From Candidatus Omnitrophota bacterium (GTDB taxonomy: Bacteria; Omnitrophota; Gorgyraeia; JAFGGP01), in NCBI GenBank assembly GCA_016930485.1, contig JAFGGP010000030.1, forward strand, positions 2,745 to 66,744: a DNA stretch of 64,000 nucleotides, written 5' to 3'. Each line of letters begins with the position of its first letter. Position 1 is the stretch's first letter. Under the pieces are notes generated by a model. The model made no database searches, was not told where the DNA came from, and was given only the letters and a program-made list of their open reading frames with translations. This document shows, in pieces, positions 27,013-58,877 of this stretch. The translations under genes were made by a program, and so were the position numbers.

Positions 27013-27176
27013 AGGGAGAATAATGGGAAAATTAGTACGGTGTAGGGCTCTTTATAAAAAAATGGGCTATTTTTGCATTAAATTGCTATAATTTTATATT
27101 TATTGACTATTTTTGTTATTTTTTAAATTTTAGGGATTTGTGTAAATTTCCCTTTACAGATGGTGTTAAAACGAAG

Positions 27177-27212
27177 TTATCCACAACCTAGGTCACACTT
27201 AAGTGTGACCTA
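27177..27212 (-). repeat. REP-like palindromic element, copy 1 (inverted relative to copies 2/3)
   Basis: ttatccacaacctaGGTCACACTTAAGTGTGACCta. The core is a perfect 20-bp palindrome. It is the reverse complement of the elements at 49804-49840 and 50472-50507. Confidence 0.85.
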
Positions 27213-40032: not shown

Positions 40033-40578
40033 TTATCCTCGGATTCCCGTCTTTTTCATTCTTCGATGAAATCTGCTGTTGTATTCCTCTTTGAACTTAG
40101 GCCCCAACTGAGATAAAGGAACTGTTAGGGGCTCCCCTCGCTCTGCCCTTGCCATATTTTCCTTAACAATATCTTTCTCTTTTGAACCATTCATTCCATC
40201 TATTTTCTCTAACATTTCTTCTTCTGCCTCATCAATTTCTTTCTCTGTTTCCCGCTCTTCTTCCAAAGCTTTATCTTTGCAATTAAAACAAGAAAGATAA
40301 TTTGCTTTGTGATATTTCTTTCGGCAGATATGACAAAGCTCCAAATTATGATGTATTGCAAAATGGCATTTCCTGCAAAGAACAATATTTTCTTGTTCCT
40401 TTAAGTCAACATATTGATCCTTTTTGTCATATGTTGATTCATCCAAATGATGAACCGTCAGAAATAGGCTTGAACCACACCACTCGCATTTTCCGCCTCT
40501 GGCTTTAATAAATTCGTCTCTTTTTTCCTTCCACTCCTTTCTGTTCCAAAGATTATGCAGTTCTTTTCTCTTTTCCAT
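40033..40578 (-). CDS. HNH-endonuclease-like protein
   Basis: CEWCGS..LTVHHLDE ... CRKCHFAIHH plus further CxxC pairs. Confidence 0.6.
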   Translation of the reverse strand: MEKRKELHNLWNRKEWKEKRDEFIKARGGKCEWCGSSLFLTVHHLDESTYDKKDQYVDLKEQENIVLCRKCHFAIHHNLELCHICRKKYHKANYLSCFNCKDKALEEERETEKEIDEAEEEMLEKIDGMNGSKEKDIVKENMARAERGEPLTVPLSQLGPKFKEEYNSRFHRRMKKTGIRG

Positions 40579-41530: not shown

Positions 41531-42796
41531 TTAGGGGGTGTTTTGTTTCTGGAAGTATAATTCCATTAATTTCTTGCCTAAGCCTTCCTTTAAAGCTGAT
41601 CCAATAAGTGCTTCTTGCAGGGAAAGGTCTTTTCTTAACAAATCTGCAAGGATACTTTCAAAGCCGCCCTTCTTTTCATCAAGCGCAATGGCAGTTTTAA
41701 CATCTAAAACACTGCCGCATTTCTTGCAGAATAAATGATCCTTCGGGTTTATGTCATTGCACCTGGGGCATTGTTTTATCTTTGGCTCTTGTTTTTCTGT
41801 CTCTTCTTTCTTGAAACCATGAATTTCAAGCATGACATCATTAACATCTCTTGAAACTAAATGTGAATATTCGGAAAGCATGTTGCTTGAAGGAACCCAG
41901 CCAAAATAAACTTTAGCCTGTGATTCATTTATCTGCTTGTTGATAAGCAAATGAGTAACCCTTGTATGCCTGAACAGATGGGGATAAATTCTCTTCTTTA
42001 TTTTTGCTTTCTCTTTCAGCCTTAAAACTAATGCTCTGAAAGCCGCATATTTCATTCTTTGATTTTTGTTTCTATTCCCAAGCATAACCCATAAAGGCGC
42101 ACTTGGATCGTTTTTTAACGGATGAGAATTAAGCCATGTAGTTAAATAAGAATCAGAAACTACTATTCTCGGAGTTCTATGCCCTGTCTTTCCGCTTAAG
42201 TCAATGATGAAGCTGTAATTATCCCTTGATATATCGCCTATGCTTATTTTCCCTATCTCTCCTATTCTTGCGCCCAATTCATAGAGCATGCCGACGAATG
42301 CTTTATCTCTTGGGTTCTCTGCAACCTCAATCAATTTATCAATTTCTCTTTCAGTTAAGATATCAGAGGCATTCACTCTAGGTTTTTCCTTTTCTGAAAC
42401 ACTTACCCTCATCCAGCTAATTATTTCTGGTTGTTCCTGTCTTTCAAGGTAGCCATCCCCGAACACATGCCATCTGTAGAATTTCTTGAGAATAGTTTTG
42501 TAGCTATGCCTTGTCCATACCGAATAATCCTCTCTGCCATCAATCTTTAACACAGCCTGCTTTAATTGATCCTTCGTGGCCTTGTCAAAATCAATTTTTA
42601 TGTAATCCCTTGCAAGAATAATCAAATAGCTTATTATCTTTGTTTTTCTCGATATGCTTAATCTTTCAAGGCTGCATGCTTCATCAAACTTGAAAATCAA
42701 ATCTTTATTTGCCTGAGAAATCTCGGCTTTTTGCAGATGTTCTTTTGCCCTTGTATACTGCAAATCATGCCCGTAAATATCTTTTTTGGGATTCAT
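41531..42796 (-). CDS. Tyrosine recombinase/integrase with C-terminal zinc ribbon
   Basis: ELGARIGEI (Arg), HLFRHTRVTHLL (HxxR), SEYSHL (Tyr), CPRCNDINPKDHLFCKKCG. Confidence 0.8.
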   Translation of the reverse strand: MNPKKDIYGHDLQYTRAKEHLQKAEISQANKDLIFKFDEACSLERLSISRKTKIISYLIILARDYIKIDFDKATKDQLKQAVLKIDGREDYSVWTRHSYKTILKKFYRWHVFGDGYLERQEQPEIISWMRVSVSEKEKPRVNASDILTEREIDKLIEVAENPRDKAFVGMLYELGARIGEIGKISIGDISRDNYSFIIDLSGKTGHRTPRIVVSDSYLTTWLNSHPLKNDPSAPLWVMLGNRNKNQRMKYAAFRALVLRLKEKAKIKKRIYPHLFRHTRVTHLLINKQINESQAKVYFGWVPSSNMLSEYSHLVSRDVNDVMLEIHGFKKEETEKQEPKIKQCPRCNDINPKDHLFCKKCGSVLDVKTAIALDEKKGGFESILADLLRKDLSLQEALIGSALKEGLGKKLMELYFQKQNTP

Positions 42797-43028: not shown

Positions 43029-43727
43029 TCATGATATTCCATTTTCCCCATCATCTCTTTTTGGGGTTTTTGTTGATACGTCGAATTTAAAAGCCAGAAT
43101 CATCTTTACATTTTTTCCAAACTCATTATCCTTCAGGTCTTCTGATATCCTGTGTTGTGCGGTTCCGTTGGTTGGAACACAAATCACCGAATCAAATCCA
43201 GAATAAAGATTTCTCCTTATGTTCTTCAGGTGATTTGAATTTCCTGTTTCTATCTCAACAGCTATCCTGTTCTTGCCTTTCCTTATCGCAATATCGGCGT
43301 TATCTTCCTCGATTGAAACATGATAGCCCTGTTTTTCATAATATTCGGCAATTTTCAGTTTCCAGAATTTATGCTCAATGCTTTCATTGAAGGTATTAAC
43401 ATGATAGCCGCTTCTTCCTAAAATACCGGCGCCCTTAGGCGTTATCTCAAATAATACAATCCATCCCGATTTTGTGATAATTCTCTTAGGAATGATAAAG
43501 CCGTGTGAAATCCATAGTTCTTTCCATTTGTTTCCTGTTTTCGGGTTTACGCCGAGCCTTTTATACCTATCAACAACTGTTGAAATAGGGTGGTTCACTA
43601 TGTCAATCATAAAAAGGCATTCCCTTGATCCCGGCAATTCCCCCTCGTCTAAACTATCCTCATATTTCATTTCTCCCTCGTCCTTATTTGAAAATAGTAA
43701 TCCTGTAGTATTTAAGCGTTGTATCAA
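43029..43727 (-). CDS. wHTH + PD-(D/E)xK-like nuclease-fold protein
   Basis: ..IVLFEITPKGAGILG..HKFWKLKIAEYYEKQGYHVSIEEDNADIAIRKGKNRIAVEIETGNS.. A paralogous unit of the ATPase C-terminus. Confidence 0.55.
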   Translation of the reverse strand: MIQRLNTTGLLFSNKDEGEMKYEDSLDEGELPGSRECLFMIDIVNHPISTVVDRYKRLGVNPKTGNKWKELWISHGFIIPKRIITKSGWIVLFEITPKGAGILGRSGYHVNTFNESIEHKFWKLKIAEYYEKQGYHVSIEEDNADIAIRKGKNRIAVEIETGNSNHLKNIRRNLYSGFDSVICVPTNGTAQHRISEDLKDNEFGKNVKMILAFKFDVSTKTPKRDDGENGIS

Positions 43728-47941: not shown

Positions 47942-48288
47942 GTCTCTATAACAAAAAAGCCTCTATCTTCTTTAAGTAGAGGATTATATAAAAACACCTC
48001 TACCATTTTTTAGTAGAGGTTATCAACCTTTAGTTCTGAGGTGGTTTTTAAAAAGGGCGAACCTCATCGCCTTTAATCCTTATTAGTTAAGATACCATAA
48101 ATTCATGAAAAGGCAAGTTAAATGTGCATGGAGGTATAAAAGAATACGGGACACTAAGAAAATTGAAAATCATGAACAAATAAAGAACAAAAAAATATAA
48201 ATACGCCAATAACGATATCGTTTGGGCAATGAGGTCTGCCCAGGTTAATCCCGAACCGCCTCAGGCTAATGACTTCTAAGGGATTAAT

Positions 48289-49803: not shown

Positions 49804-49840
49804 TAGGTCACATTTAAGTGTGACCTAGGTTGTGGATAAA
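49804..49840 (+). repeat. REP-like palindromic element, copy 2
   Basis: taGGTCACATTTAAGTGTGACCtaggttgtggataaa, immediately 5' of the RAYT gene. Confidence 0.85.
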
Positions 49841-49918
49841 TTTGCAGCTCTTTTATTGCAAATAAAATACAAGATAGGCAGCATCCACTATAACCCTATA
49901 CTCTCAAGAACAGTTATT

Positions 49919-50410: not shown

Positions 50411-50471
50411 TATTCGTTCGCAGCCATAATAAAAATGATAGGCAAGGAAACATTTCCTTTTTCCGTATCCA

Positions 50472-50507
50472 TAGTCACATTTAAGTGTGACCTAGGTTGT
50501 GGATAAA
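50472..50507 (+). repeat. REP-like palindromic element, copy 3
   Basis: taGTCACATTTAAGTGTGACCtaggttgtggataaa (1-nt deletion in the left arm), 60 nt 3' of the RAYT gene. Confidence 0.85.
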
Positions 50508-50697
50508 TTCGTAACTGCTTATGTTACAACAAAATAAAGGGGTTTGTTTTTGGCGTAGCTTGTTCTTTTTCAAAAGAAAGGAAGTTTTTTTAAATCAGGC
50601 GGGTGTCAGCAACGGGAAATGCAATCGCAACATACACCACAATAGTCGGATTTCCTAAAAATGCTTAATCCGCGAGGGGGATAAAAAATGTTGCTTT

Positions 50698-51121: not shown

Positions 51122-53089
51122 ATGAAACCCGAAAATAAAAATTACATCCTGGAAAATATTAAGACGAAATCTGTAGAGCAGATTTCACAAGAGTTAGGTA
51201 TTCGAGAGAAAGATATTAGGCGGTTTATACAAAAAGAGCGGGCAAGAAAAAAACAACAAGGTCCCACATTAGAGGCTGCGCGCGCCACAGAAAGAGTAGA
51301 TGTTAAAAAAGCCGAAAAAGATAAAAAAACAGGGGGGCTTAAAGAGTTAAGCAATAATACTGCCACAACAATAACGGTACTTGCGATCTGTTTAATAATT
51401 GTCGCAGGGTTCGCCACCTATTGCACTATGCTTAACGGGGAGTTTTTGTGGGATGATATTGGTTTGGTGAAGAATAATTTTTATATACAAAATTGGTCTA
51501 ATATCGCTCCCATTTTTTTAAACAAGCAAAGTATTACTGCGGGAAAGGAAATCATTTTTTACCGCCCGCTTCAGATGGTTACCTACATGTGTGATTATTC
51601 GTTATGGAAATTCAACAGTATGGGATACCATCTCACAAGCATTATAATACATATTTGTGTTGCTTTGTGTATTTATTGGTTTACCATTCTTCTTTTTAAA
51701 GACGGACGGCTTTCATTGTTGACCAGCCTCTTTTTTGTTGTTCACCCCATACACATAGAGTCAGTTTCATATATATCCGGCCGATCTGATTCGCTTGGGC
51801 CGCTGTTTTTGCTTATTGCCTTTATTTTTTATATCAAGTCCCTCCGTTATCGTGAATTTAAAAATGCCGGCATGTATATTTTGGCTTTTGTAAGTTATAT
51901 AGCAGCTTTGCTCTCGCGCGAAAACAGCCTCATCTTTCCGGTATTGCTCATTTTTTACCACTGGCATTTTAAGGTAAGGGTTGGCATCAAGAAAATGATG
52001 CCTATTCTGGCCATCACCGTTGCATACCTCATAATGAGAGTAACCCTTTTAAGCCCTCCATCGAAAATTGTCTCTAAAGGTGCTTTTACCGGCACCGCTC
52101 TGTTGCAAAGAGTTCCCGGTATGTTTCGCGCGTTTTTCAATTATATAAGACTGCTACTAGTGCCTTTTAACCAGCATATGGAGTATGGATCAAACTTATA
52201 CCACTTTAATGACGTAACAGTACTTCTGGGAATCGTCTTGTTATCATCGCTTGTTTTTTATGCTATAAAAATAAGAAAAACGCAAAAACTGGTATTTTTC
52301 TCTCTGTTGTGGTTTTTTATTACACTCCTGCCTGTCTCTAATATATATCCGCTGAATGCCTATATGGCAGAGCACTGGCTGTATCTGCCGTCGCTGGGTT
52401 TTTTTCTGCTTTTGGCAAAATCCGTTGACTCTGTATCATCGCAGATAAAAAAGAGATGTCCCGCAATTTTTTCTATAATACCCGTAATAGCCGTGTTGGT
52501 TTTTTATTCAAGGCTGACCATCAAAGAAAATAATTATTGGAACAACCCGCTGCTTTTCTATCAGAAAACAGTGCAATACGCCCCTGAAAGCGCGAGACTG
52601 TATAATAATCTCGGTAATATATATTTGTCTATGAAGGAATACCAGAAAGCCATAACTGCGTACACAAAGGCGATAGAGATTGACCCTAATTATGCGGACG
52701 CATATAGCAATCTCGGTAATATATATTTTTCTCTGGAACAATACCAAAAAGCCATCACTGCGTACACAAAGGCAATAGAACTCAACCCTAACTATGAGGA
52801 CGCGTACTTCAATCTTGCCAATACCTACAATACGTTCAATAACGATTATAAAAAAGCCATCCCTTTATACAAAAAGGCCATAGAACTTAATCCAAACTTT
52901 GCAAGCGCATACTATAATCTTGGCAGAACATACGGCTCAATGGGAGATATAAACAAAGCAATATCTCTTCTGGAGAAAGCAATAGCATTAGACCCTAATC
53001 TTACAGAGGCCTACGACATGCTTGCCGCCGCATACACAGCATCTGGTCATCCGGAGAAAGCCCGCAGCTTATTGGATAAAAGAAAGTAA
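51122..53089 (+). CDS. Polytopic PMT/TMTC-like (GT-C) membrane protein with C-terminal TPR repeats
   Basis: ~10 TM helices after a short HTH-like N-terminus, then 6-7 TPR units (..YNNLGNIYLSMKEYQKAITAYTKAIEIDPNYADAY.. repeated). Confidence 0.7.
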   Translation: MKPENKNYILENIKTKSVEQISQELGIREKDIRRFIQKERARKKQQGPTLEAARATERVDVKKAEKDKKTGGLKELSNNTATTITVLAICLIIVAGFATYCTMLNGEFLWDDIGLVKNNFYIQNWSNIAPIFLNKQSITAGKEIIFYRPLQMVTYMCDYSLWKFNSMGYHLTSIIIHICVALCIYWFTILLFKDGRLSLLTSLFFVVHPIHIESVSYISGRSDSLGPLFLLIAFIFYIKSLRYREFKNAGMYILAFVSYIAALLSRENSLIFPVLLIFYHWHFKVRVGIKKMMPILAITVAYLIMRVTLLSPPSKIVSKGAFTGTALLQRVPGMFRAFFNYIRLLLVPFNQHMEYGSNLYHFNDVTVLLGIVLLSSLVFYAIKIRKTQKLVFFSLLWFFITLLPVSNIYPLNAYMAEHWLYLPSLGFFLLLAKSVDSVSSQIKKRCPAIFSIIPVIAVLVFYSRLTIKENNYWNNPLLFYQKTVQYAPESARLYNNLGNIYLSMKEYQKAITAYTKAIEIDPNYADAYSNLGNIYFSLEQYQKAITAYTKAIELNPNYEDAYFNLANTYNTFNNDYKKAIPLYKKAIELNPNFASAYYNLGRTYGSMGDINKAISLLEKAIALDPNLTEAYDMLAAAYTASGHPEKARSLLDKRK

Positions 53090-53231
53090 ACCTCGTTAGA
53101 CCCCTACCTAAAGACCAGGGCTTTCTTGCTGCCTAGGAAGCTATAAAACAATAGACATTGCCGGCATCAAAGACGTTCATGCTCACTACTACAGGAGCAA
53201 GGAACCCCATAAGGAACGTTCTGAAGGTGCC
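53078..53231 (+). repeat. ~150-nt repeat, copy A (begins in last codons of 51122-53089)
   Basis: aaaagaaagTAAacctcgttagacccctacctaaagaccaggg...ggaacgttctgaaggtgcc. About 90% identical by eye to the reverse complement of 56911-57061. Confidence 0.85.
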
Positions 53232-53341
53232 AACAATGTTAGCGCGTTCGGTTGCTTTTTTGTTTCAATGCAACAGTGTATTCATTTCCCCACTTTGAAA
53301 AACGGGGCTTTGCGGGCTTAACGGAGCAAATAAAAGGTGGG

Positions 53342-54415
53342 TTACACGCTGAACCGGATGTGCAGAATGTCGCCGTCCTCGACGATATAGTCTTTTCCCT
53401 TTACGTAAAACTTGCCGGCCTCTTTGAGTTTTTCCTCGCTTCCAGCGGCAATAAACTCGCCGTATTTCATGACCTCGGCCCGGATAAAACCCCGTTCCAT
53501 ATCGCTGTGTATTGTCCCTGCCGCCTCGGGGGCAAGAGAATTTGCCGGGACCGTCCATTGCCTGACCTCTTCTCCGCTGGCGGTAAAAAAAGATATCAGA
53601 TCCAACGCCTTCATTGAGAGACCGGTAAGTATGTTAATGGCGGGTTCCTGGATTCCCAACGCCTCCAAAAATTCTTTTTTTTCTGCTTCTGTCTCTAATG
53701 TTCTTATTTCAGATTCAACTTTCGCGCATACCTGCATACTGTCGATGCCTAAAGGAGCAAGCTTGTTTGTCAGCTGACCCAAAAATGCCGTATCCCCAAG
53801 CTTATCCTCAGAGACATTCAGAACGATCAGCATTTTTTTCAACGTAATAAAGGGGTAGCCGGAGATAATCTTTTTTTCGTCTTTGTCCAGTGTCAGAAGC
53901 CGCAGAGGCATCTCTTTCTCCAGCTGTTCCTTGAGTCGGATCAGAAGGTCTCTTTCCCTGGTCCCTGATTTATCCGCTATTTTCCTCAGGGTATTCTCAA
54001 GGCGTTCCAGTCTTTTCTCGATAAATACCAGGTCGTGGAGCACCAGTTCCGCATTGATAGTCTCTATATCCCGCGCCGCATCCACCGACCCTTTTATGTG
54101 GTAAATGGCATCGTCATGAAATGCCCTAACAACATGGCAGATGGCATCAAGGTTGATGATGTCTTTAAAAATCTCGCCCTTGGCAATAGTATCCTGTTCT
54201 ATCTTGGGGAGAAGCTCGAAATCTATCCGTGCGCGTACGCTTTTTTTAGGCCTGTAGATACCGACTAACGCGTCAAATCTCGCGTCGTATATTTCCGCGA
54301 CACTCTTGATGGGTTTATTTGACGCAAGGTCCTTATCGGAACACGTATATCCGGTAAGCACCTCAAACAGTGTTTTTTTTCCGGTCTGCGGCAGACCGAT
54401 AATGCCGATTTTCAC
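53342..54415 (-). CDS. ychF: Ribosome-associated ATPase YchF (Obg-like)
   Basis: G1 GIIGLPQTGKKTLF; C-terminal TGS/DUF933 ..VRQWTVP....APEAAGTIHSDMERGFIRAEV.... Confidence 0.9.
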   Translation of the reverse strand: MKIGIIGLPQTGKKTLFEVLTGYTCSDKDLASNKPIKSVAEIYDARFDALVGIYRPKKSVRARIDFELLPKIEQDTIAKGEIFKDIINLDAICHVVRAFHDDAIYHIKGSVDAARDIETINAELVLHDLVFIEKRLERLENTLRKIADKSGTRERDLLIRLKEQLEKEMPLRLLTLDKDEKKIISGYPFITLKKMLIVLNVSEDKLGDTAFLGQLTNKLAPLGIDSMQVCAKVESEIRTLETEAEKKEFLEALGIQEPAINILTGLSMKALDLISFFTASGEEVRQWTVPANSLAPEAAGTIHSDMERGFIRAEVMKYGEFIAAGSEEKLKEAGKFYVKGKDYIVEDGDILHIRFSV

Positions 54416-54630
54416 TAATGCCTCACTTTGAAAGGAGTTAATGTGCTGTTTATATGTTATACTCTACCACAATTTCTGCGTCTTTTCCTGATGAAAATGA
54501 AATTCCGGTGCCTGATTTTTGCGTGGAAATATAAAAAGGACAGCGACCGGACCGACAAGACAAAACTATAGTGATAATTTGTTTGCACTAACCCTTTATT
54601 TTTGGTATAGTTATAATATCATCTCTGGGT

Positions 54631-55800
54631 GTGAAAATGAACGATCCTGATCGGCATATCCAACTTTCTATTGTCATTCCGTGTCTGAACGAGGAAGAAA
54701 CCCTTGGTCTGTGTATCACCAAGGCGTTCAAGGCAATAAGGGATCTCGGCATTTCGGGTGAGGTGGTGGTGGCTGATAACGGGTCAATCGATCAATCGGC
54801 CTCTATAGCCGAATCGCTCGGGGCCCGTGTCGTATATCAGCCATTACCGGGATACGGCAACGCCCTGATGAAGGGCGTTGCCGAGGCACAAGGGAAATTT
54901 GTCATTATGGGCGATGCCGATGATTCGTATGATTTTTCCTCCATAGCGCCCTTTATGGAAAAATTGAACGAAGGGTATGATCTGGTTATGGGAACGCGGC
55001 TTAAAGGGACGATTCATAAAGGTGCGATGCCGTTTTCGCACCGCTGGGGAAATCCGCTGATGACGTGGATCCTCAATCTCTTTTATCGGACAGGCATCTC
55101 TGACGTAAACTGCGGCATGCGGGGATTTACCAAAAAGGGCTTTGAGCGCCTCAATCTAAGATGCGGCGGCATGGAGTTTGCCTCTGAATTTGTCGTAAAG
55201 GCAATTAAAGAAAAATTGAGTGTCGCCGAAATCCCCATTACCTACTATAAAGATAAAAGAACCAGCCCTCCGCACCTCAGGACCTTTAGCGACGCGTGGC
55301 GACATATGCGGTTTCTTCTGCTCTACTGCCCGTCCTTTTTGTATCTTGTCCCCGGTGTATCGCTTCTTGTGTTGGGATTCTTTATCCTGATCCGCGGTTT
55401 ATTCGCACCCTTTCAGATAGCTAATATCATTCTTGACTATCACTATAATTTCCTTGCCGCCGTGTTTGCTATTCTCGGCGCCCAATTATGCCTGCTCGGG
55501 ATATACGCCCGCGCCTTTGCCTATATAAAAGGATTTGATAAATATGATACTTTTATAAAAAAATATATAAAGCAATTTTCGCTGGAGCGAGGGGCGCTTA
55601 TCGGCCTGCTTACTGTCGGGCTGGGCATGGTCTTTTTTGTGACCATACTGGTCAAATGGATCGCGGCGGGAGGCGGGGTCCTTTTTGAAGTGCGAAAAGG
55701 CATCATCGGCATTGCACTTCTGGCGATCGGATTTCAGCATATTTCTTTTTCTTTCCTTTTGAGCATGCTCTTAATGGAATCCCAGGAATATAACTCCTAA
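54631..55800 (+). CDS. GT2 glycosyltransferase with C-terminal 4-TM domain (GtrB/DPM1-like polyprenyl-phosphate sugar synthase)
   Basis: LSIVIPCLNEEE, VVVADNGSIDQS, GDADDSYD (DxD), then TM helices. Confidence 0.8.
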   Translation: MKMNDPDRHIQLSIVIPCLNEEETLGLCITKAFKAIRDLGISGEVVVADNGSIDQSASIAESLGARVVYQPLPGYGNALMKGVAEAQGKFVIMGDADDSYDFSSIAPFMEKLNEGYDLVMGTRLKGTIHKGAMPFSHRWGNPLMTWILNLFYRTGISDVNCGMRGFTKKGFERLNLRCGGMEFASEFVVKAIKEKLSVAEIPITYYKDKRTSPPHLRTFSDAWRHMRFLLLYCPSFLYLVPGVSLLVLGFFILIRGLFAPFQIANIILDYHYNFLAAVFAILGAQLCLLGIYARAFAYIKGFDKYDTFIKKYIKQFSLERGALIGLLTVGLGMVFFVTILVKWIAAGGGVLFEVRKGIIGIALLAIGFQHISFSFLLSMLLMESQEYNS

Positions 55801-55805
55801 AAAAC

Positions 55806-56804
55806 ATGCAGGCCGAATTCCCTTTTATTTCGATTGTCATCCCGGTAAGAAATGAGGCCTCCGTACTCGCCCGGTGCCTGGAATCGCTGGGTAAGCTCGA
55901 TTACCCCAAAGACCGCTATGAAATAATCATTGCTGACGGTCTCTCAACCGATCGCTCGGCAGAGATTGCCCGCTCCTTCGGCGCTATCGTCATCAGCAAC
56001 GAAGGCCTAACCGCCACAACAGGCAGAAACAGCGGCTTTGCCTGCGCACAGGGTGATATTGTCGCATTTACCGACGCGGATTGCGTCTTTGATCCAGGCT
56101 GGCTCAAAAACAGCTTGAAATACCTCGGTGACCCGAGGGTAGCCGGTGTAAGCGGGCCGACCCGCTTTCCTCCAGACAGCTCCCATTTTGAAGCGGCCGT
56201 GAATCTCATTTTTAATATGGTCGCCAAAACCCATTATACCGTACATATGCAAGAACTAAATCGCCCTCGAGAGATTCATGATATACCGGGGTGCAATGCG
56301 TTATACAAAAAAGAGGCGCTTGAGAAGGTTATGCCTCTGGATGAGAATCTACTGACCGCGGAGGATGTATGGGTCAACTATCTTTTGCGTAACGCGGGCT
56401 ATCGGCTGCTCCTGACGCCTGATATTATCGTATGGCATTACCGCCGTTCTTCCCCGAAAAAGTTCATACGTCAAATGTACCGGTATGCTATCGCCCGTTG
56501 CCAGGTCGGAAAGAAAAGCTCTTTACAGTTGTTGAGACCGCTTCATATAGTTATCGCTGTCCTGCCGGTGCTTTTTTTAATCGGCCTCACGGTTGCTTGT
56601 GCATTCGGGTTACTTTCGACGATGATAAAGACGGCCCTTATAATAATATTCATAATAACCGGGGCGCTGCTCGTGAAGACCGCAAATGTAGCGGTTGCGC
56701 TCTATACGATCTTAGCGGCGTTTATACTGGTGTGTTCGTGGTCGGCCGGTTTTTTAAGGGAGTGGTTTTTCCCTCTGCGGGTGAAGAAGACCGGTGATCA
56801 GTAA
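55806..56804 (+). CDS. GT2 glycosyltransferase with C-terminal TM helices
   Basis: ISIVIPVRNE, IIIADGLSTDRS, FTDADCVF, EDVWVNY. Confidence 0.8.
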   Translation: MQAEFPFISIVIPVRNEASVLARCLESLGKLDYPKDRYEIIIADGLSTDRSAEIARSFGAIVISNEGLTATTGRNSGFACAQGDIVAFTDADCVFDPGWLKNSLKYLGDPRVAGVSGPTRFPPDSSHFEAAVNLIFNMVAKTHYTVHMQELNRPREIHDIPGCNALYKKEALEKVMPLDENLLTAEDVWVNYLLRNAGYRLLLTPDIIVWHYRRSSPKKFIRQMYRYAIARCQVGKKSSLQLLRPLHIVIAVLPVLFLIGLTVACAFGLLSTMIKTALIIIFIITGALLVKTANVAVALYTILAAFILVCSWSAGFLREWFFPLRVKKTGDQ

Positions 56805-56816
56805 GTGCGTTGGCTT

Positions 56817-56850
56817 ACCCCGTTAGATTCAAAAAGCCCTGTTTTTTAAA
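56817..56850 (+). repeat. Degenerate partial third copy of the 5' end of the ~150-nt repeat
   Basis: accccgttagattcaaaaagccctg, 13 nt after the stop of 55806-56804 (compare aacctcgttagaccc...aaagaccaggg). Confidence 0.4.
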
Positions 56851-56910
56851 GTAAGGCTAAATGCAACGTTGTAGTGGAACAAAAGAGTAATCGAACGTGT
56901 CAATTTCATC

Positions 56911-57061
56911 GGCACCTTCAGAACGTTCCTTATGGGGTTCCTTGCTCCTGTAGTAGCAGCATGGGCGTCTTTGATGCCGGCAATGTCTATTGTTATAGCT
57001 TCCTAGGCAACAAGACAACCCTGGTTTTTAGGTAGGGATCTAACGGGGTTTACTTTCTTTT
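56911..57061 (-). repeat. ~150-nt repeat, copy B (begins in last codons of 57050-57961)
   Basis: On the minus strand: aaaagaaagTAAaccccgttagatccctacctaaaaaccaggg...ggaacgttctgaaggtgcc. Confidence 0.85.
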
Positions 57062-57961
57062 TCGTATATGCCACAACAAGTTATGGTAGAGGAGTCCTGC
57101 AAAAAAGAATAGCCCGCCCAATAATTCTATATAGCTCTTATCTATCCTCTTAAGACAATCGACTGCTTTTTTAAACATGCGCCTTCGAAGTTCCCTGCCA
57201 TCGTATATACCCGGAAACATCCTGGTAAGAAATACTTTGCTTTCGCTGTTCTGGTAATTCCATTTTAAAAAATGCCTCACCAACATCCTTTTTCTGGGAA
57301 TAGTATGATATACGACACACGAAGGGCAGTACCATACTGTATGTCCGCCTTTCATCATACTGAAAAAAACCTCTGTATCCTCCCCTCCTTGTGTATTTGT
57401 CCCTTTATGCCCTAAACATGTTTTAAAAAGATAGGCCTCGTCATTAAAGATGCTCCTTCGTATAACACAGTTTGCGGTAATGAACTCATGCAGTAATGAT
57501 ATAATGCGAAACGGGGTATCTCCGTAATCCAATAACCCGAGGGCCTTGCACAGATTATCTGTTATCCAGGGCGGTCTTTGGATTTCCCATTTTGGCAGCA
57601 CTCTTCCCGCTATACAATCTACGTCACGGTCTCGAAGATTTTTAACTATCTCGATAAGCCACAGAGCATCGACTTGGACATCATCGTCGATAAAGGCAAG
57701 GAACTCTCCCTTTGCCTCTTTGATACCCCTGTTTCTGGCGCACGAACTGCCCTGTGCGGGTTCACAAAAATAACGGATGTTTCCGCCAAAAAGCGGAGAG
57801 ACAGATTCCACCGTCTCTTTTGTATAGTCGGAAGAGTTATTGTCGACCACGATAACTTCGTAAGCGGCATCTTCGGGCGCTTTGGCAGCAAGAATGCTGT
57901 GCAATGCGTTATGCAGGCCCTCGGCGTTATTATACGTGGGTATAACGACACTAATCTGCAT
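57050..57961 (-). CDS. GT2 glycosyltransferase
   Basis: MQISVVIPTYNN, VIVVDNNSSDYT, ARNRGIKEAKGEFLAFIDDDV. A tandem paralogue of the upstream gene. The start is set at ATG 57961. Confidence 0.8.
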   Translation of the reverse strand: MQISVVIPTYNNAEGLHNALHSILAAKAPEDAAYEVIVVDNNSSDYTKETVESVSPLFGGNIRYFCEPAQGSSCARNRGIKEAKGEFLAFIDDDVQVDALWLIEIVKNLRDRDVDCIAGRVLPKWEIQRPPWITDNLCKALGLLDYGDTPFRIISLLHEFITANCVIRRSIFNDEAYLFKTCLGHKGTNTQGGEDTEVFFSMMKGGHTVWYCPSCVVYHTIPRKRMLVRHFLKWNYQNSESKVFLTRMFPGIYDGRELRRRMFKKAVDCLKRIDKSYIELLGGLFFFAGLLYHNLLWHIRKRK

Positions 57962-58877
57962 TGTCAGCCTGGTTGTGTTTTGATAAGGTGTATACAATCA
58001 GCCCTATAAAGCGGGCGCATAATGTAAGTAATTCTATATACCTTTTGTGGAGGGTAATAAGATTACGCATAATGAGCTTTGTTCGCTTGAGCAGCATTGC
58101 TTTTTTGCTTTCATACAAGCCTAACGGAAAAAATGTCTGCAGTTTTCCCATGCTCTGTCCATAGTAGAAATTCCATTTTAATAAATACCCAACGGACATC
58201 CTGTGTCTTGGTACTATATGATATACGAAGGCCGAAGGCCAGTACCATATTAAGCGGTGATCCCTGAGTAATCTTAAAAATAATTCCGTTTCCTCACTGG
58301 AAAGAACTCTTTTCCCTGTTCTGCCCAATTGGGTTTTAAACAAATACCTCTCGTTGTCAAATAGGCTGCGTTTTACGCAAAAACTTGTCCCTACAAACTG
58401 TCTGTCTCTCGATCGTATATGAAATGGCTGGTCGCCGTAATCTAAAAGCCCTAAGTTCATACTCAAGGCGTCCGTCAACCAGGCGGGTCTCTCCGATTCC
58501 CAGCGCGGAAGAACCTTCACAGCTATACAGTCCGGGGTATGTTCTTTTATGCAACGCAGTAATTCGATAAGCCAGTTTTGATCAACACAAACATCATCGT
58601 CAATAAATGCCAGATAGGCGCCCTTCGCTTCTTTAATGCCCCTATTCTTTGCGTAAGAAAGGCCTTGTTGCTTTTCAAGATAAGAGCGGATGGTTAAAAA
58701 CGGTTTGAAGCCCTCAATCACCTCTCTTGTATTATCGGATGAGTTATTATCGACTATTATAATTTCGTGGTCAATTGCATCGAGATTTCTCAAATGCGAC
58801 ACACTTTCCAATAACCGCCTTAATTGCTGTGCGCGATTGTAACTACAGATAATGAGGCTGATAAATGGGGCATTCAT
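57951..58877 (-). CDS. GT2 glycosyltransferase
   Basis: ISLIICSYNR, IIIVDNNSSDNT, AKNRGIKEAKGAYLAFIDDDV. Confidence 0.8.
   Translation of the reverse strand: MNAPFISLIICSYNRAQQLRRLLESVSHLRNLDAIDHEIIIVDNNSSDNTREVIEGFKPFLTIRSYLEKQQGLSYAKNRGIKEAKGAYLAFIDDDVCVDQNWLIELLRCIKEHTPDCIAVKVLPRWESERPAWLTDALSMNLGLLDYGDQPFHIRSRDRQFVGTSFCVKRSLFDNERYLFKTQLGRTGKRVLSSEETELFLRLLRDHRLIWYWPSAFVYHIVPRHRMSVGYLLKWNFYYGQSMGKLQTFFPLGLYESKKAMLLKRTKLIMRNLITLHKRYIELLTLCARFIGLIVYTLSKHNQADNAD

Follow-up and report, generated by a model that had tools for sequence, protein, structure and literature searches.

Two inverted repeat copies between convergent genes

The window analyzed here, a stretch of 64,000 nucleotides from a Candidatus Omnitrophota bacterium (contig JAFGGP010000030.1, positions 2,745 to 66,744), contains two copies of a short non-coding repeat, A and B, in inverted orientation. 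The genes are arranged in the order TPR-655 (+), copy A, ychF (-), GT2-389 (+), GT2-332 (+), copy B, GT2-315 (-), GT2-308 (-), flippase (-) and PMT_2 (-). Each copy is about 250 nt long as delimited by alignment and blastn, and blastn gives 84% identity across 234 nt between them. The copies and the genes that they border are as follows.

51122..53089, + strand: TPR-repeat protein of 655 aa (Pfam TPR families), identical to P0121; the last three sense codons and the stop (..LLDKRK-stop) lie in copy A
53078..53329, + strand: copy A, 252 nt, from alignment and blastn against copy B and from Logan contigs L013 and L001
53342..56804: segment between the copies, with ychF at 53342-54415 (-), GT2-389 at 54631-55800 (+) and GT2-332 at 55806-56804 (+), all from Pfam
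56815..57061, - strand: copy B (read 57061-56815), 247 nt, inverted relative to copy A
57050..57997, - strand: GT2 glycosyltransferase, 315 aa as an open reading frame (ORF), Pfam Glycos_transf_2, P0001; the last three sense codons and the stop (..WHIRKRK-stop) lie in copy B

The copies are true sequence and not an artefact of metagenome-assembled genome construction, since run SRR13394437, assembled independently in Logan, yields two contigs identical to the window, both copies included (L013, 50480-53215; L001, 53202-56940). Both contigs end 30 nt inside a 46-nt block that is identical in A and B, as expected of a graph with k = 31. The window has exactly two occurrences of this core, and shuffled sequences have none. 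The repeat thus marks a break point of the short-read assemblies of this lineage, and the orientation of the 3.6-kb segment between the copies could be mis-assembled.

The left edge of the homology is abrupt: the 30 nt upstream are 20% identical, which is the random level, and the next 12 nt are identical at 12 of 12 positions. These 12 nt, AAAAGAAAGTAA, provide the codons K-R-K and the TAA stop of both the TPR protein and the 315-aa GT2 protein. The right edge falls within 2 nt of the motif TAACGGRGY. The sequence AAAAGAAAGTAAACC was found only twice in the window. A previous sequence-only reading of this DNA had already located the two inverted copies and their common K-R-K-stop, and its estimate of about 90% identity over some 150 nt agrees well with the 92% (142/154) obtained by pairwise alignment, in which the identity extends into the coding ends (12/12). 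The length of about 150 nt was too short, as the homology covers about 250 nt with a 3' third that had been overlooked and is only 66% identical. The "degenerate partial copy" that was reported at 56817-56850 as a third occurrence turned out to be the distal end of copy B.

Each copy occupies the whole gap between two convergent genes, with the left end overlapping one stop codon and the right end lying 10-12 nt from the other. For copy A, the gap extends from the TPR stop (53087-53089) to the ychF stop (53342-53344), and 12 nt remain as a spacer next to ychF; for copy B, it extends from the GT2-315 stop (57050-57052) to the GT2-332 stop (56802-56804), with a spacer of 10-12 nt on the GT2-332 side. 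Based on crude ORF-based gene calls across the 64-kb window, these convergent gaps measure 252 and 245 nt, compared with -47, 2, 23 and -42 nt at the other credible convergent pairs. Without the element, the two junctions would measure only about 10-12 nt.

Terminal inverted repeats and internal anatomy

Copy B is bounded by a perfect 12-bp terminal inverted repeat (TIR), consisting of ACCCCGTTAGAT (57049-57038) and ATCTAACGGGGT (56828-56817), which are exact reverse complements. A perfect 12-bp inverted repeat within the 30-nt edges was obtained in none of the shuffled versions of copy B (0/20,000), so that the "no obvious terminal inverted repeats" of the sequence-only reading does not hold. 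The arms of copy A form a degenerate TIR, with seven Watson-Crick pairs (one of them compensatory), two G.T pairs and three A.C mismatches. The parts of the element are listed below.

53078..53089, + strand: AAAAGAAAGTAA of copy A, codons K-R-K and TAA stop of the 655-aa TPR protein, outside the left TIR arm
53090..53101, + strand: left TIR arm of copy A, ACCTCGTTAGAC, two transitions relative to B
53102..53231, + strand: well-conserved 5' body of copy A, 120/130 identical to B, with one 2-nt and one 1-nt indel
53186-53231 (copy A) and 56911-56956 (copy B): invariant 46-nt block at the 3' end of the conserved 5' body
53232..53315, + strand: diverged 3' body of copy A, 56/84 identical to B
53316..53327, + strand: right TIR arm of copy A, GCTTAACGGAGC, five transitions relative to B
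56817..56828, - strand: right TIR arm of copy B, ATCTAACGGGGT on the element strand, read as ACCCCGTTAGAT on the + strand
57038..57049, - strand: left TIR arm of copy B, ACCCCGTTAGAT, perfect reverse complement of 56817-56828
57050..57061, - strand: AAAAGAAAGTAA of copy B, codons K-R-K and TAA stop of the 315-aa GT2 protein

The TIR-bounded unit measures about 233-238 bp, or about 250 bp with the left extension of 12 nt. It holds no conserved ORF: stops are present in all six frames, and the 2-nt and 1-nt indels between the copies shift the frames. The invariant block contains the direct repeat AAGGAAC-N5-AAGGAAC, whose units are one helical turn apart, followed by the palindrome GAACGTTC; together they could be a candidate protein-binding site.

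The TIR coincides with the homology boundary on the right and lies 12 nt inside it on the left. The 12 nt on the left imply either that the TIR is subterminal on this side or that one locus served as template for the copy at the other, flank included. If they belong to the element, the left TIR is subterminal and an insertion may donate K-R-K-stop to the host gene. A pre-existing identical 12-nt target at both sites would be far too improbable for two genes 4 kb apart. As for the proteins, the C-termini of the TPR family are natively basic, most Omnitrophota paralogues ending in ...PEFLKLLEPYRK-stop, and the GT2 homologue P0002 also has a basic tail, ...RLK-stop; a replaced tail would be tolerable because both families natively carry such tails. 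The TPR homologues, at 49% identity or less, are too paralogous to polarise the C-terminus of the window protein.

Two observations on the TPR protein itself stand apart from the repeat. Its paralogues (P0122-P0180, members of a large Omnitrophota family) mostly possess a common C-terminal module with the ending given above, and the window protein ends in ...HPEKARSLLDKRK-stop without the preceding part of that module. Inside its gene (51122-53089), positions 52601-52933 consist of 102-nt tandem repeats, one TPR unit each, with 75-83% DNA identity, and this array suggests a recent repeat expansion or homogenisation.

Divergence between the two copies

The identity between the copies is mosaic, with 92% (142/154) over 53078-53231 and 66% (65/98) over 53232-53329. 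The shift is sharp and comes directly after the invariant 46-nt block (Fisher p = 4e-7 for the 5' versus the 3' part). Differences between A and B comprise 34 transitions and 6 transversions, of all types and in both directions. The mosaic fits gene conversion between nearby inverted copies, different source copies, and constraint on the stop-proximal part equally well.

In the TIR arms, where the perfect arms of copy B were taken as the ancestral state, all changes fall in copy A (7 versus 0) and all are transitions, which corresponds to p of about 0.016 if the ancestral TIR was perfect. This one-sided decay argues that A and B are not simply copies of each other of equal age. Five single changes in the arms lead to two G.T wobbles and three A.C mismatches, the 50:50 ratio expected without selection for pairing, and the decay in copy A appears on this basis to be neutral rather than shaped by maintenance of an RNA helix.

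Orthologous junctions in related genomes

Two metagenomic relatives have the GT2 genes next to copy B. In L012, whose GT2-315 homologue is 57-61% identical, a pgpA-like gene is followed by GT2-389 and GT2-332, and the latter converges with GT2-315 such that these two overlap at their 3' ends. In L011, which possesses the same GT2 trio, the stops of GT2-315 and GT2-332 are 28 nt apart, compared with 245 nt in the window. The orthologous GT2-315/GT2-332 junction is thus empty of the 245 nt of copy B in both relatives. The present orientation of GT2-389 and GT2-332 facing GT2-315 is the ancestral order, since L012 shows the same one.

No synteny of the ychF region was found in the nearest genomes (YchF 60-68% identical), and junction A thus has no syntenic relative. 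The lineage is poorly sampled, given that the nearest YchF among the GTDB representatives reaches only 68% identity. The genes on the borders are intact. The alignment of GT2-315 with its tandem paralogue reaches residue 310 of 315, and its homology to P0002 runs up to and including H-[I/F]-R, beyond which the tails diverge to KRK-stop and LK-stop; GT2-332 aligns over residues 1-326 of 332, and the C-terminal domain of YchF is complete.

The tandem paralogues GT2-315 and GT2-308 (57050-58877) are 44% identical as proteins and share an 81-nt stretch with 78% DNA identity (57256-57336 and 58169-58249). In its long ORF form, GT2-315 has a 47-nt overlap with the end of GT2-308; the product annotated at NCBI is shorter, with 303 aa.

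A putative non-autonomous element

We consider the chances about even that the repeat is a non-autonomous small interspersed element resembling miniature inverted-repeat transposable elements (MITEs), or the relic of one. Its size, the lack of an ORF, the TIR and the empty orthologous site are those of a MITE-like element. The mobile element was among the candidate roles named by the sequence-only reading, and it fits these data best, although the "gene-end targeting" attached to it is more likely a survivorship effect, because only insertions between convergent stops would be harmless in a dense genome.

According to this reading, a transposase supplied in trans would have moved the element into two very short spacers between convergent genes. 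Insertions would survive only where nothing is disrupted, hence the position between stop codons. The left end would carry AAAAGAAAGTAA, from which the host gene reads K-R-K-stop as element sequence. The element is probably co-transcribed as the 3' untranslated region (UTR) of the upstream gene, and its paired termini may close a long hairpin. Copy A would be an older, decaying insertion and copy B a younger one, or one with maintained ends; the high identity of the 5' two-thirds may derive from gene conversion between nearby inverted copies or from different source copies.

Several results weigh against a MITE-like element. The homology between the copies reaches 12 nt past the left TIR arm, which is unexpected for a classical cut from TIR to TIR. 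The target-site duplication (TSD) is ambiguous: the TIR-bounded unit is flanked by a 3-nt direct repeat in copy B (TAA/ACCCC...GGGG/TAA) and by TAA and CAA in copy A, and these are too short in A-rich flanks. Multi-copy dispersal, a defining trait of MITEs, is not demonstrated by two copies that are 3.7 kb apart. A two-copy profile searched with nhmmer detected no further copy in the window or in any of the retrieved loci, and a k-mer scan with a 20-mer of the core gave 0 matches in the GTDB representative genomes and IMG/VR. The second core block and the correctly spaced TIR pattern had 0 matches in IMG/VR, and BLASTN in distant mode yielded no match to plasmids and phages. No cognate transposase with matching ends was identified in the window, and other ACCCCGTTAGAT-like ends occur in the window at chance level. 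Copy number, a clear TSD and an identified transposase are therefore the MITE traits that have yet to be found.

Other searches gave candidates that we rejected, or none. Three k-mer matches in JGI metagenomes all come from one 22-mer inside a single unrelated coding gene and are attributed to chance. The 43-codon stop-free reverse frame of the element, used as a protein query in place of DNA searches, returned no candidate from a set of 5.8 billion clusters, a negative of low power as a 26-aa edge ORF of L013 itself is apparently absent from that collection. In a representative library, the same query matched only P0241, a tandem-repeat protein whose score is the sum of 18 weak matches, with no homology. 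A match to the mis-spaced TIR pattern in L016 belongs to an unrelated long palindrome. This palindrome (L016 3528-3713, IMGVR_UViG_3300035695_000222) is nearly perfect with arms of at least 30 nt (TTAATCAATTGGCAGTTAAGACCCGTTAGATC...), and has only the 10-mer CCCGTTAGAT in common with the TIR studied here, probably by coincidence. Since all searches for further copies were empty, the status of a family rests on anatomy and not on copy number.

The only transposase nearby is a REP-associated tyrosine transposase (RAYT), whose gene at 49832/49921-50410 (+) lies at a distance of 2.7 kb from copy A and scores 123 bits with NCBIfam NF047646 (cut-off 80). A separate hairpin unit of about 40 nt, TAGGTCACATTTAAGTGTGACCTAGGTTGTGGATAAATT, flanks the gene in direct orientation (49804-49842 and 50471-50512), and a third copy of this unit, solo, inverted and 95% identical, is intergenic at 27171-27212. 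The RAYT-flanking unit (GGTCACAYTTAAGTGTGACC...) and the 250-nt element have no 7-mer in common. The RAYT gene and its hairpin units form a RAYT/REP system in Omnitrophota that is unrelated in sequence to the 250-nt repeat.

Alternative explanations

A single local event without transposition is an unlikely alternative. One copy would have been templated into the 3' end of the other gene, carrying along the final 12 nt of its own host gene, by homology-facilitated or microhomology-mediated recombination, template switching or gene conversion. The TIR would then be a property of the original sequence, which might have been one old insertion or the region of a hairpin terminator. This accounts for the presence of only two copies close together, and for the 12 coding nt outside the TIR that are identical in two unrelated genes, with the drop to 20% identity upstream. 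The native basic tails of the R/K-K-stop type (...PYRK-stop in TPR paralogues, ...RLK-stop in P0002) offer microhomology, and the 92%/66% mosaic with its sharp boundary resembles a conversion tract. However, an arbitrary duplicated segment would not be expected to have its right homology boundary within 2 nt of a TIR arm. Direct copies of equal age predict symmetric decay of the arms, in conflict with the seven changes confined to A (p of about 0.016, assuming a perfect ancestral TIR), and an initial insertion would still be needed at the junction that is empty in the relatives.

Decidedly unlikely, in our estimate, is a functional RNA, namely a structured 3'-UTR element or a 3'-UTR-derived small RNA (sRNA) common to two glycosylation genes that would affect mRNA stability, termination or, in trans, a common regulon. 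The same end of the element abuts the stop of a glycosylation-related gene in both copies, such that the same strand would be transcribed as 3' UTR, and the stop-proximal 154 nt are much better conserved than the remainder. On the forward strand, RNAalifold folds the two copies into a fully compatible structure of 59 pairs, three compensatory and none broken, and the forward consensus energy lies below that of column shuffles (z = -2.5; 2/300 shuffles), but not the reverse (z = -1.3). The ratio of transitions to transversions is also high (34:6). On the other hand, the reverse strand folds equally "perfectly" (63 pairs, three compensatory), and no covariation beyond chance was detected, as the three compensatory pairs compare with 2.6 expected under a column-shuffle null, in an alignment of only two sequences that has essentially no statistical power for covariation. 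The terminal helix of copy A decays like neutral DNA. Rfam returned nothing at the gathering threshold for either copy (at E<=10, copy A matched only the rpsB sRNA, with 14 bits where the cut-off is 40, and copy B had no match), neither promoter-like nor terminator-like sites were found inside either copy, and the element is absent from the orthologous junction in two relatives. The role as 3'-UTR RNA or sRNA precursor suggested by the sequence-only reading is thus weakly favored by the forward energy and gains nothing from covariation.

A more specific form, which we regard as quite doubtful, is a domesticated or de novo structured 3'-UTR RNA of about 150-240 nt on two surface-glycosylation genes in Omnitrophota. 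If true, this RNA would start at the stop codon, with a long-range helix closing it, and would coordinate the stability or termination of both genes or yield a 3'-UTR-derived sRNA. Selection on that role, in place of gene conversion, would hold the stop-proximal 154 nt at 92% identity, with the remainder having drifted to 66%.

Programmed or recurrent inversion, in which the copies would be sites for flipping ychF and two GT2 genes as a switch of surface glycosylation similar to phase variation, is very improbable. Recombination between the inverted copies would indeed flip these genes, as had been pointed out from the sequence, and the orientation and the 3.6-kb spacing are suitable. RecA-mediated exchange requires a minimum identical length of roughly 25 nt, which the 46-nt block exceeds; a tyrosine recombinase gene lies about 10 kb away, and the Logan graph breaks exactly in the common block, a short-k assembly being compatible with both orientations. 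But both breakpoints are in the 3' gaps of convergent genes, and every gene would keep its promoter and stop with unchanged expression logic. The present order of GT2-389, GT2-332 and GT2-315 is that of L012, the recombinase is distant and far below the cut-offs for invertases and integron integrases, and the repeats are 84% identical in contrast to the short near-perfect sites typical of invertons. A recombination-site role is valid as geometry, but the inversion would alter no promoter-gene relationship and the present order is ancestral.

Two further explanations can be dismissed: a small ORF, by the stops in all six frames and the frame-shifting indels, and intramolecular replicative inversion, whose standard model places the target duplication at opposite ends of the element, one inside and one outside, whereas the common 12 nt are at the same end of both copies, on the outer sides.

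Comparison with known repeat families

In behaviour, the closest match to the MITE-like element proposed here would be the pneumococcal set of BOX, RUP and SPRITE repeats. Together with insertion sequence (IS) elements, these are significantly over-represented between convergent coding sequences in pneumococcus, and BOX provides the stop codon of 36 genes that are not evidently truncated (PMC3049150). The TIRs of BOX and RUP pair, and the three families were explained as non-autonomous parasites whose presence downstream of genes is tolerated (PMC3049150, Croucher et al. 2011). Like BOX and RUP, the present element is short, non-coding and TIR-bearing, lies between convergent genes and encodes the adjacent stop codon. 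It differs from the set in having two copies and no known partner, whereas BOX, RUP and SPRITE number from tens to more than 100 copies per genome and RUP has a proposed IS partner. It is also about twice the length of RUP (about 240 bp and about 107 bp, respectively), is not similar in sequence to BOX, RUP or SPRITE, and comes from a different phylum.

Small elements of 100-400 bp with TIRs and no ORF, which are co-transcribed and occasionally give codons or stops, include Correia/NEMIS of Neisseria, ERIC, and RPE of Rickettsia. Classical MITEs have defined TSDs (TA for Correia) and TIRs at their extreme ends. The present element resembles them in size class, TIRs and absence of an ORF, and departs from them in its ambiguous TSD and in the common sequence that extends 12 nt beyond the left TIR.

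REP sequences show a similar location, between convergent or unidirectional ORFs, with termini that supply TAG stops (PMC3733652). A REPIN consists of two palindromic REPs of about 20-25 nt in inverted orientation, usually about 100 nt in total, and the same REP flanks the RAYT gene (PMC3116915, PMC3337134, PMC3733652). The intergenic position, the supply of a stop codon and the RAYT gene 2.7 kb from copy A are in line with REP or REPIN. Such an assignment was rejected, as the 12-nt arms of the element are not palindromes and no 7-mer is in common with the RAYT-flanking unit.

The attC sites of integrons also form an imperfect inverted repeat at the 3' end of a gene, which sometimes includes the stop, and the arms of the element contain GTTAGAT and ATCTAAC (consensus GTTRRRY / RYYYAAC). 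This candidate was rejected on the order of the motifs, which is inside-out (GTTAGAT...ATCTAAC against RYYYAAC...GTTRRRY), and on length, about 233 bp being too long for a class ranging from 57 to 141 bp. Neither an integron integrase nor a cassette array was found, the nearest tyrosine recombinase scoring 31.7 bits against a 265-bit cut-off for integron integrases. The repeat pair of a diversity-generating retroelement was rejected as well: the 34 transitions and 6 transversions are of all types and not confined to adenine, and no reverse transcriptase is among the annotated neighbours.

No new mechanism is involved here, since the location between convergent genes, paired TIRs and a repeat-encoded stop are already well documented for BOX, RUP and REP; the kind of element is ordinary, and the family is new. 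If confirmed as a family, it would be a first MITE-like repeat described from Omnitrophota, whose members are known almost exclusively through metagenomes, and would add to the cases in which selfish repeats rewrite the terminal codons of host genes.

Other features of the window

The tyrosine recombinase of the window is a 421-aa protein encoded at 41531-42796 (-), with a match to Pfam Phage_integrase (E = 4e-19) and scores below all equivalog cut-offs for Xer, integron integrases and invertases. The neighbouring ORFs at 40033-40578 and 43029-43727 both lack a Pfam match, and the recombinase may be part of an integrated element.

Two fluoride riboswitch aptamers are located back to back at 48007-48080 (-) and 48216-48285 (+), with 46.3 and 38.7 bits against a gathering score of 34. 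The one on the minus strand leads into genes for DUF6062, TauE, enolase and a Na+/H+ exchanger, and the one on the plus strand into an ORF of 138 aa without a Pfam match.

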